IMG/VR virus record: IMGVR_UViG_3300021255_002052
Location: 45,772-109,771 of that record
Strand: one strand, 5' to 3'
DNA: 64,000 bases
Source of the DNA: a virus
Lineage: Duplodnaviria > Caudoviricetes
Positions 52,459-53,959 of this stretch are shown here, in pieces; the first letter of the stretch is position 1; each line of letters opens with the position of its first letter. Both the position numbers and the translations under genes were made by a program. A model generated the notes under the pieces. The model was given only the letters and a program-made list of their open reading frames with translations. It was not told where the DNA came from and searched no databases.

Positions 52459-53718
52459 TTATCCGCCAAAATTCACCACTTTCTCGCGCCTTTTCGTCAG
52501 TTCCTCGAACCTTTTCTCGTCGAGATCTTCGGTCTCCAGAGCCTTCATCTGTTCAGACAAGCGCTGGATTTCGATCTTCTTCTGCTCGTCGAAACAGAAG
52601 GTGTAGAGGTCCATCGTCATAGCGAGGGTCGCGTGTCCGAGGATCGTCTGCACCGCTTTCGGCGACATCCCCGCCTCGAAGCAGCGGGTCGCGAAGGTAT
52701 GGCGGAAGCAGTGGGTGGAGAAATACTCGATCTTCTCTAACGATGACCGGCAGAGATTCAGTTCGTCCAGGATCCGGTGGATCGCTTTGTTCACGTCTAT
52801 ATTAAGGATAGGCGTGTCGTACTTGCTCACGAAGAGCTGATCCTCAAATCCTTCGGCAACCTTATGAGAGTCTATCGCCTTTCCTCTAGCGACGAACTTC
52901 TGTACGTACTGGGCCTTCAGCGCCTTCGCACACTCCTCGGTGATCGGGATAACGCGCTTCGACTGCTTCGTCTTCGGAGGTCCCAGGTGGAACCGCTTCT
53001 GCGTATCTCCCGGCTTCTTCAGATAAGTCAGCGTACGATCCACCCGAATCAGATTCGCGTCCCAGTCGATGTCGTCCCAGCGGAGACCGCCGAGCTCGCC
53101 GATTCTCATGCCGGTGTTAACCGCGACCACGAACAGGTTATAGTACCAGGTTCCTCTCGCCGCGTTAAAGAAAGAAACCTGCTCCTCGCGGTTGAGGACC
53201 CGGACGTCGGAGTCTTCGTTCTTGATCGGAGTCTTGACGCCCTGTGCCGGATTCCGCCGGAGGATGCCGTTATTGACCGCCTTATCCATCATGTCGCGGA
53301 TGATCGCGCGGCTTTTATCGACCGTCTCGAAGCCGAGGCCGTCGACCTCCACCATGTCGATCAGCGCTTTCAGAATGTCGGTCTGGCGGATCTTATGGAG
53401 CTTCTTATCTCCCAGCACCGGCTTGACGTGTAGGCGGTACACCTGGCTGTAGTAGGTGACCGTATTCGGCCGGAGCCCGTACTTATACGACGATATCCAG
53501 GTCTCGTACCACTCGTCCAGCGTAATATCTTCGTTCTCCTCGGGCGGGTGATCCCTCCTGTAAATCGCCGCCTCGAGCTTATGCTTGACTTCGGTCTGCG
53601 TCTTCCCGTACACTGAGACGCGCTTACCGTTGCCGTCTATATATCTAGCTTCGTATGAACCATTTGCCCTCTGGCGGATTCCTTCGCCCAGGGGCTTTCC
53701 TTTAATACTTTTTCCCAT
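52459..53718 (-). CDS. int: Tyrosine integrase, 419 aa
   Basis: N-terminal arm-binding domain (GIRQRANGSYEARY), TGMRIGE, PKTKQSKR, HCFRHTFATR, ILGHA..TMDLYT. Confidence 0.95.
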   Translation of the reverse strand: MGKSIKGKPLGEGIRQRANGSYEARYIDGNGKRVSVYGKTQTEVKHKLEAAIYRRDHPPEENEDITLDEWYETWISSYKYGLRPNTVTYYSQVYRLHVKPVLGDKKLHKIRQTDILKALIDMVEVDGLGFETVDKSRAIIRDMMDKAVNNGILRRNPAQGVKTPIKNEDSDVRVLNREEQVSFFNAARGTWYYNLFVVAVNTGMRIGELGGLRWDDIDWDANLIRVDRTLTYLKKPGDTQKRFHLGPPKTKQSKRVIPITEECAKALKAQYVQKFVARGKAIDSHKVAEGFEDQLFVSKYDTPILNIDVNKAIHRILDELNLCRSSLEKIEYFSTHCFRHTFATRCFEAGMSPKAVQTILGHATLAMTMDLYTFCFDEQKKIEIQRLSEQMKALETEDLDEKRFEELTKRREKVVNFGG

Positions 53719-53729
53719 TGATTCTCCTC

Positions 53730-53773
53730 AATAAGAAAGAGCCACACATCTGAACTATACCAGATGGCGGCTC
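53730..53773 (-). terminator. Intrinsic terminator between xis and int
   Basis: Minus strand GAGCCGCCATCTG-GTATAGTT-CAGATGTGTGGCTC-TTTCTTATT. Confidence 0.7.
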
Positions 53774-53782
53774 CCGTGTCTA
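53754..53782 (-). promoter_or_regulatory. SigmaA-type promoter for int, embedded in the terminator
   Basis: -35 TAGACA (53782-53777), 17-nt spacer, extended -10 TGgTATAGT (TATAGT at 53759-53754). Confidence 0.7.
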
Positions 53783-53959
53783 CTTCGCCCGACTAGCTAG
53801 CCATTCGTCGAGCTTCGGCCTATAGAAGTAGTATCTGTGGCCGATCTTTATTTTAAACCCCGCGTTAGGCGTATGTGCTATCTCCGCCGCTTTCTTACGC
53901 CCTACGCCCAGGTATTTTTCTAGTCCCCTCTGTGTGAGGAGTTCCGGCATTCTCGCCAT
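53780..53959 (-). CDS. xis: Excisionase (HTH_17-like), 59 aa, ends at TAG; absent from the ORF track
   Basis: MARMPELLTQRGLEKYLGVGRKKAAEIAHTPNAGFKIKIGHRYYFYRPKLDEWLASRAK*, directly upstream of int, TGATG coupling with the previous gene. Confidence 0.85.
   Translation of the reverse strand: MARMPELLTQRGLEKYLGVGRKKAAEIAHTPNAGFKIKIGHRYYFYRPKLDEWLASRAK

Follow-up and report, generated by a model that had tools for sequence, protein, structure and literature searches.

A probable inherited terminator/promoter cassette at the xis-int junction of a TAG-recoded phage

The xis-int junction of the phage studied here is probably an ordinary, inherited junction of the Tn916-type xis-int module of Lachnospiraceae-type phages, carrying a terminator/promoter cassette. 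An earlier, sequence-only reading of the same DNA had made two proposals about it. The first was that a terminator-like hairpin separates int from the preceding operon, that the -10 element of the int promoter lies within this hairpin, and that an int-only RNA would lack the 5' arm. Comparison of relatives supports this terminator-plus-promoter reading, which appears to hold for the whole module family. The second was that the TAG stop of xis, in a phage whose late genes read TAG as sense, makes the junction a genetic-code-dependent switch of Int and Xis. As standard-code relatives share the layout with TAA, TGA or TAG as the xis stop, this switch would be an unsupported add-on.

The window, i.e., the whole stretch of DNA analysed, is the final 64 kb of a linear 109,771-bp IMG/VR virus record, for which CheckV estimates a completeness of 60%. 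The size of the phage was put at roughly 180 kb. The features that bear on the genetic code are as follows.

1-51,888, plus strand: late genes (tail, fibre, baseplate, class-V aminotransferase, amidase/glucosaminidase/SPOR lysin)
28566-28657 of the genome, upstream of the window: tRNA(CUA)

On the plus strand, the late genes stay open solely under a reading of TAG as sense. One late frame of 7494 codons contains 96 TAG, and such a number in a single ORF points to highly efficient suppression. The lysin has one TAG, at codon 58; it is aligned with a Gln that is conserved in XlyA and PlyL (Amidase_2 domains), and this one lysin site supports the reading that TAG encodes Gln in the phage. The meaning of TAG was also sought from paralogous fibre genes, which offered too few informative columns, and a Pfam search of six head/packaging candidates gave no match. 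The tRNA(CUA) was drawn by ARAGORN as a 92-nt molecule with a long variable arm. The early arm occupies the minus strand between 64,000 and 52,459 and consists of ~38 small, tightly packed genes, of which xis and int are the last; in-frame TAG is found in 0 of these 38 genes. TAG as sense in late genes, a tRNA(CUA), a TAG-Gln alignment and lysogeny genes without in-frame TAG together match the features of code 15, and the claim that the late genes read TAG as sense was thereby borne out by the long frame, the tRNA and the lysin alignment.

At the end of the early arm lies the integration/excision module, whose genes and repeats are the following.

53780..53959, minus strand: xis, a 59-aa Tn916-type excisionase with a winged helix; TAG stop at 53782-53780
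52459..53718, minus strand: int, a tyrosine recombinase of 419 aa whose N-terminus has a weak match to the Tn916-type arm-binding domain; ATG at 53718
52395..52456, just past the int stop: six copies of the repeat GGGGTA(C/T), most of them 11 nt apart (10-11)
52163-52182: two further GGGGTA(C/T) repeats

The start of xis overlaps the TGA of the preceding gene, and the coordinates of a 59-aa xis with a TAG stop, as originally described, were confirmed. When the window Xis was searched alone, PF09035 was matched with E=0.0044 and 17.6 bits, under the 22.9 cut-off; the same family was matched by 18 of the 18 members of the family alignment (best 2.2e-25), where the identity between the window Xis and 17 aligned relatives reaches 44%. 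An AF2 model of Xis (pLDDT 80.9) found Tn916 Xis (1Y6U) as its top PDB match, with TM 0.67/0.67 and a probability of 0.99 over 56 of 59 residues, followed by RdfS and Pukovnik Xis. The Foldseek E-values were weak (0.06), as expected for a short protein. The ORF at 53959..53780 is a real excisionase. Three findings show that the 59 aa make up a complete Xis: its C-terminus lines up with the C-termini of its relatives, the family matches PF09035, and the fold agrees with that of Tn916 Xis, which has 59 residues.

Int contains no in-frame TAG. Pfam analysis revealed PF00589 (1.5e-29) as well as PF14659 and PF22022, and its N-terminal Integrase_DNA domain (PF02920) was matched with E=1.1e-4 and 22.5 bits, under the 27-bit cut-off; this domain is on record for most of the close int homologues. 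The catalytic residues R205, H336-x-x-R339, H362 and Y372 are invariant across an alignment of 18 homologues. The GGGGTA(C/T) repeats beyond int are probably arm-type Int sites that flank the attP core. The two genes lie on the same strand, with xis directly upstream of int, and this arrangement is shared by the relatives, although the distance from the xis stop to the int start is 61 nt in the window versus 67-94 nt elsewhere. Within these 61 nt, and reaching into the end of xis, the following elements are packed.

53754..53782, minus strand: candidate int promoter, with -35 TAGACA at 53782-53777, a 17-nt spacer and -10 TATAGT at 53759-53754
53737..53775, minus strand: hairpin of 16 pairs with one bulge, whose loop is the -10 hexamer; Watson-Crick core at 53773-53739
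53730..53738, minus strand: T-rich tract TTTCTTATT past the hairpin; tail of a putative intrinsic terminator
53724..53729, minus strand: int RBS GAGGAG (AGGAGG or AAGGAG in relatives)

The promoter-like site that had been proposed (TAGACA-17-TATAGT with TG) is present at these positions, with the TG extension at 53762-53761 ahead of the -10 element (TGgTATAGT). The xis TAG stop at 53780..53782 doubles as the first three bases of the -35 element. In a promoter scan, the junction site scored 10/12 with the TG, and the scan returned 59 promoter-like sites against 44 +/- 6.7 in shuffled sequences; what places the candidate int promoter beyond chance is its positional conservation in relatives, not its score alone. 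Transcription is predicted to start at ~53748-53746.

The hairpin and T tract of the original description were likewise found. The hairpin begins 4-7 nt past the xis stop, its extent being 53775-53737 when G-U pairs are counted and 53773-53739 for the core without them. The hairpin is stable and G+C-rich; as RNA it has a minimum free energy of -24.8 kcal/mol, with a z of -3.7, and its stability was matched by 0 of 200 shuffled sequences. Its tail, UUUCUUAUU, has 7 U in 9 positions and is interrupted. Hairpin and T tract together form a putative intrinsic terminator; the junction was absent from the list of a consensus terminator scan because the stem is bulged, and no known RNA family was found at the junction in Rfam. 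Every element is kept in near-identical copies on contigs L012-L016, which, at ~98-100% identity across the junction, carry little evolutionary information. The sole hairpin change among them is a C>T substitution in the 5' arm that converts a G-C pair to G-U, and that would replace Pro with Ser if the read-through frame were translated.

More informative relatives were obtained by an alignment-based scan of IMG/VR with Int, which replaced a single-protein scan that had given only 23-29% identity. The sample comprises 80 IMG/VR loci plus metagenome loci and covers ~20 lineages with Int 32-50% identical. Beyond the near-identical copies, the closest Int relatives are ~50% identical or less, and they are abundant in Roseburia/Agathobacter MAGs and IMG/VR phages. 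The hairpins of these loci were folded and tabulated lineage by lineage. About 18 of the 20 lineages, the departures being L066 and L067, share one order of elements, namely xis stop, -35, arm, -10, arm, T tract, RBS and int, and it is this shared layout with covarying arms that upholds the first proposal of the sequence-only reading. A -35-like TTGnnn lies 0-12 nt past the xis stop of the relatives or overlaps it, the 5' arm fills the promoter spacer, and the interior of the hairpin holds a TATAAT-like box, usually with TGn. The xis stop abuts or overlaps the -35 element in L031 (TGA|TTGATG), L219 (TAA|TTGAAA) and L033 (TTGTAG) as well. The arm sequences vary by lineage (AAGAACTTTTG, AAAGGATCTCA and GAGCCGTGATG in relatives versus GAGCCGCCATCTG in the window) and have no shared sequence between lineages, while pairing is retained at 8-22 bp. 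Arms that are unlike and yet complementary point to a structural element, an RNA hairpin, and argue against a conserved protein-binding motif. When 16 junctions were aligned with MAFFT, the 3' arms remained unaligned, and RNAalifold therefore gave zero consensus pairs. Most relatives have a T-rich tail past the hairpin, with 4-8 T in 9 nt, and the terminators range from weak to canonical, as in L048, where a 14-bp stem is followed by TTTTTTATTTTTT.

These comparisons also bear on the idea that the inverted repeat is a DNA operator, where a dimeric repressor, Xis or Int would bind the arms flanking the -10 element and shut the int promoter. An inverted repeat that straddles a -10 element has classic operator geometry, and several lineages have an imperfect T tract; however, the arms carry no conserved motif across lineages, the loop varies from 3 to 31 nt, unlike the fixed spacing of a dimer site, most lineages have T-rich tails past the 3' arm, and the C>T variant retains pairing only at the RNA level. 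An operator is therefore an unlikely account of the repeat, and the varied loops, motif-less arms and T-rich tails led to its rejection as the main explanation.

The genetic code of the relatives decides how the xis stop is to be understood. Six whole relatives of 120-206 kb (G001-G004, retrieved via Int, and G006 and G008, retrieved via a late protein) all use the standard code: tRNA(CUA) is absent from all six, and under code 11 long ORFs cover these genomes to a normal extent, with no rescue when TAG is taken as sense. G006 and G008 had been considered as recoded relatives for the one TAG in their late gene, and reading of the whole genomes assigned both to the standard code. Four of the six carry the module, and one of the six belongs to the outlier lineage L067. 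The cassette is identical in layout in the standard-code G001, G002, G004 and G008, and the same layout in non-recoded relatives is an observation that the sequence-only reading had itself named as evidence against a code-dependent switch. In two of these genomes, G004 (L062) and G008 (L218), xis even ends with TAG before the same cassette. Among 19 lineage representatives, the xis stops are 8 TAA, 3 TGA and 8 TAG. No recoded relative with the module was found among 80 clade relatives scanned by the late protein, and in essentially all of these 80 the late gene lacks in-frame TAG. The phage thus appears as an isolated recoded member of an otherwise standard-code clade.

The proposed switch depends on what follows the xis stop when TAG is decoded by the phage tRNA.

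53702..53779, minus strand: frame open if TAG=Gln, 25 codons to a TAA at 53704-53702, 17 nt into int; 85 aa in total

The open frame past TAG is present as claimed, with the 85-aa product and the 17-nt overlap with int; the extension is counted here as 25 further codons. By local composition, a run of 25 codons free of TAA and TGA has a probability of 0.43; an empirical estimate in the G+C-rich region gives 0.58. The length of the open extension is the chance expectation; the hairpin, by contrast, is beyond chance. The 26-residue tail has no counterpart in any relative of the Xis family alignment, and a search with the 85-aa read-through protein as query returned only near-identical 56-59-aa copies, none of them with a tail. 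The tail sequence is the translation of the hairpin, the -10 element, the T tract and the RBS. Eight relatives have a TAG stop; the frame past it is closed at 0, 2, 4, 5, 7 or 10 codons in six of them and stays open for 44 codons in L033 and for 27 in the standard-code G008. The extension is thus neither conserved nor longer than chance, the two marks of a read-through element, and 53702..53779 was judged to be non-coding DNA instead of a conserved extension. The Xis tail suggested earlier is not supported by these comparisons, as it has no homologue, Xis is complete at 59 aa and the frame is of chance length.

It follows from the same data that xis is hardly likely to be a recoded gene, with TAG as Gln and a true product of 85 aa that overlaps int. 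The frame is indeed open for 85 aa under TAG=Q, and short 3' overlaps are common in phages. However, in-frame TAG is absent from all other genes in the early arm of 38, every homologue ends within 0-5 residues of the TAG position, and the 59-aa fold is complete, while the tail would be encoded by regulatory sequence. The homologue ends and the complete fold led to the rejection of an 85-aa recoded xis.

The code-dependent switch itself is improbable. It holds that Xis has 59 aa under the host code, with the early transcript stopping short of int, and that read-through by tRNA(CUA) would carry ribosomes across the hairpin and the RBS. The outcome for int would be antitermination, coupling or occlusion, Xis would gain a tail, and the Int:Xis ratio would shift. 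The phage is truly TAG-recoded, as the 96 TAG in one ORF attest, and the frame is open over both the hairpin and the RBS; since the hairpin begins so soon after the stop, a ribosome translating this frame would melt it. Set against these points are the occurrence of the cassette in standard-code relatives with any of the three stops, an open frame that is of chance length and is also found in the standard-code G008, and a tail that lacks a homologue and is dictated by the hairpin, the -10 element and the RBS. The sole natural variant of the tail is non-synonymous and yet keeps the RNA pair. Furthermore, excision has to take place soon after induction, whereas the change of code is regarded as a later event, and terminal TAGs of lysogeny genes are regarded as legitimate stops (bioRxiv 10.1101/2021.08.26.457843).

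The stop codons of the early arm provide a further argument for the switch. The 38 genes end with 23 TGA, 13 TAA and 2 TAG, and the two surviving TAG stops are those of xis and the gene at 56736. TAG terminates 19-28% of genes in standard-code relatives, and its depletion in the early arm corresponds to a binomial P of ~0.01 by our own calculation. Because TAG has been nearly purged from the early arm, its presence at xis needs a reason, and its retention there is mildly notable. The simplest explanation would be that TAG is a common ancestral state in the module and the best stop for -35 positions 1-3. In the junction alignment, the window TAG sits beneath the TTG of the relatives' -35 element, and of the three stops only TAG gives the T and the highly conserved G (T-x-G) at this position, suggesting that constraint on the -35 element may keep the TAG. 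Extended -10 promoters tolerate a poor -35, and the argument from the -35 element is weaker for this reason, as such a promoter depends little on it. A co-option of the inherited xis TAG is also conceivable, in which ribosomes would pass the terminator hairpin and the int RBS once tRNA(CUA) is active and the existing cassette would have turned into a sensor of the code state of the cell, so that late in infection a tailed and possibly inactive Xis would be made and int expression altered; this too has only a small probability.

In the ordinary, inherited junction favoured here, the leftward early operon would end with xis at a normal host-code stop, and the intrinsic-terminator-like hairpin with its T tract would halt or dampen transcription into int. 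The same DNA would act as a sigma-A-type extended -10 promoter whose -35 element abuts or overlaps the xis stop, the promoter spacer forming the 5' arm, the -10 element the loop, and the start site lying in the 3' arm. The int promoter may be constitutive or separately regulated, embedded as it would be in the terminator. Transcripts that start within the 3' arm would lack the 5' arm and could not fold the terminator, and would therefore give Int alone, without Xis. If xis mRNA persisted once tRNA(CUA) was active, TAG read-through would be likely, given the highly efficient suppression that the late genes require, and an 85-aa Xis might then arise as a tolerated by-product; the comparative evidence gives no indication of selection for it. 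Counting against this inherited-junction reading are the interrupted T tract, the absence of the site from the consensus terminator scan, and the depletion of TAG elsewhere in the early arm.

The negative result on the switch keeps a story in which the genetic code controls excision off a feature that is common to standard-code phages. The compact and widely conserved cassette, with the int -10 element inside the terminator of the xis operon, would be a neat route to Int without Xis. Furthermore, the two TAG survivors, xis and the gene at 56736, would provide natural test cases for the cost of read-through in a recoded phage.

In recoded gut phages, integrases lack in-frame TAG, and the code has been proposed as a partition between lysogeny and lysis (bioRxiv 10.1101/2021.08.26.457843). 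Terminal TAGs in integrases are regarded as legitimate stops in the same study (Borges et al., bioRxiv 10.1101/2021.08.26.457843). The phage of the window resembles those phages in its TAG-rich late/lytic genes, its suppressor tRNA and an integrase without in-frame TAG; the window case differs in that the study makes no mention of an excisionase or of read-through at the junction (Borges et al., bioRxiv 10.1101/2021.08.26.457843). Among Bacillota elements, promoters dedicated to int and terminators that act as insulators are common, as exemplified by termination/antitermination in Tn916 and the sigma-H int promoter of S. aureus prophage. In a limited, non-exhaustive search that included the Tn916 literature, no description of an int -10 element embedded in a hairpin was found.

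Among known systems, Tn916 is similar to the window module in its Xis, with PF09035 matched by the family and 1Y6U as the nearest fold, and in the tyrosine-recombinase core and putative arm-binding domain of Int. In the Tn916-type modules of Bacillota prophages and ICEs, too, xis immediately precedes int in the same orientation, and arm-type repeats adjoin int, as they probably do in the window. Tn916 is a conjugative transposon, whereas the window module resides in a ~180-kb phage and its Int is no more than a distant relative of Tn916 Int. In lambda, the leftward early operon ends with xis-int-attP, and the PI promoter inside xis gives Int without Xis; termination versus read-through from PL decides whether xis and int are co-transcribed. 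The lambda xis and int genes overlap with no terminator between them, PI needs CII, and retroregulation acts at sib downstream of int. The window junction would follow the same logic of an int-only promoter, and differs in that a putative terminator hairpin encloses the -10 element.

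A late 718-aa protein is common to 80 phages in IMG/VR (loci L138-L217), at identities of 44-78%, most of them 60-78%. In-frame TAG codons are absent from the gene for this protein in nearly all of these relatives, and nine are present in that of the phage studied here (G000, the whole record). The GC content is 45% in G000 versus approximately 29-31% in G006 and G008, the two standard-code phages of the set that were read whole. Recoding in G000 looks like an isolated and recent event within an otherwise standard-code clade. The window itself is a GC mosaic with an abrupt change, from 55-58% at positions 47000-54000, which hold the lysis, aminotransferase, int and xis genes, to 28-36% at positions 54300-64000, which hold the neighbouring early gene array. 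The features considered below are as follows.

Window 2102-24586, plus strand: one frame of 7,494 codons, open when TAG is read as Gln
Window 52163-52182: two GGGGTA(C/T) repeats, 232 nt from the group of six
Window 52395-52456: six GGGGTA(C/T) repeats immediately 3′ of the int stop, mostly spaced by 11 nt (10-11)
Window 56736-56921, minus strand: early gene of 61 aa
Genome 28566-28657 (L025:566-657), upstream of the window: tRNA(CUA)

The giant late frame contains 96 TAG codons, and represents either a giant structural protein or a fusion of several gene calls. In the early arm (38 genes, window 52459-64000, minus strand), the stops are TGA in 23 genes, TAA in 13 and TAG in two, whereas standard-code relatives end more than half of their genes with TAA and 19-28% with TAG. 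Even in this standard-code arm, the phage seems to have eliminated TAG stops and favoured TGA. Besides xis, the 61-aa gene is the sole early gene stopping at TAG; if this codon is read through, the frame gains 19 codons, meets a second TAG and enters the next gene. At the xis-int junction of the standard-code phage G008 (L218, G008:C1:164280-166967), comparison with L070-type cousins revealed a 4-nt deletion 3′ of the TAG stop, owing to which 27 codons are open across the hairpin by chance.

The eight GGGGTA(C/T) repeats, located between lysin and int, look like arm-type Int binding sites on both sides of an attP core.

As drawn by ARAGORN, tRNA(CUA) is 92 nt long and has a long variable arm, giving a class-II shape. 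Such a shape is not expected of a Gln suppressor, yet the single TAG of the lysin gene (codon 58) is aligned with the conserved Gln of XlyA and PlyL.
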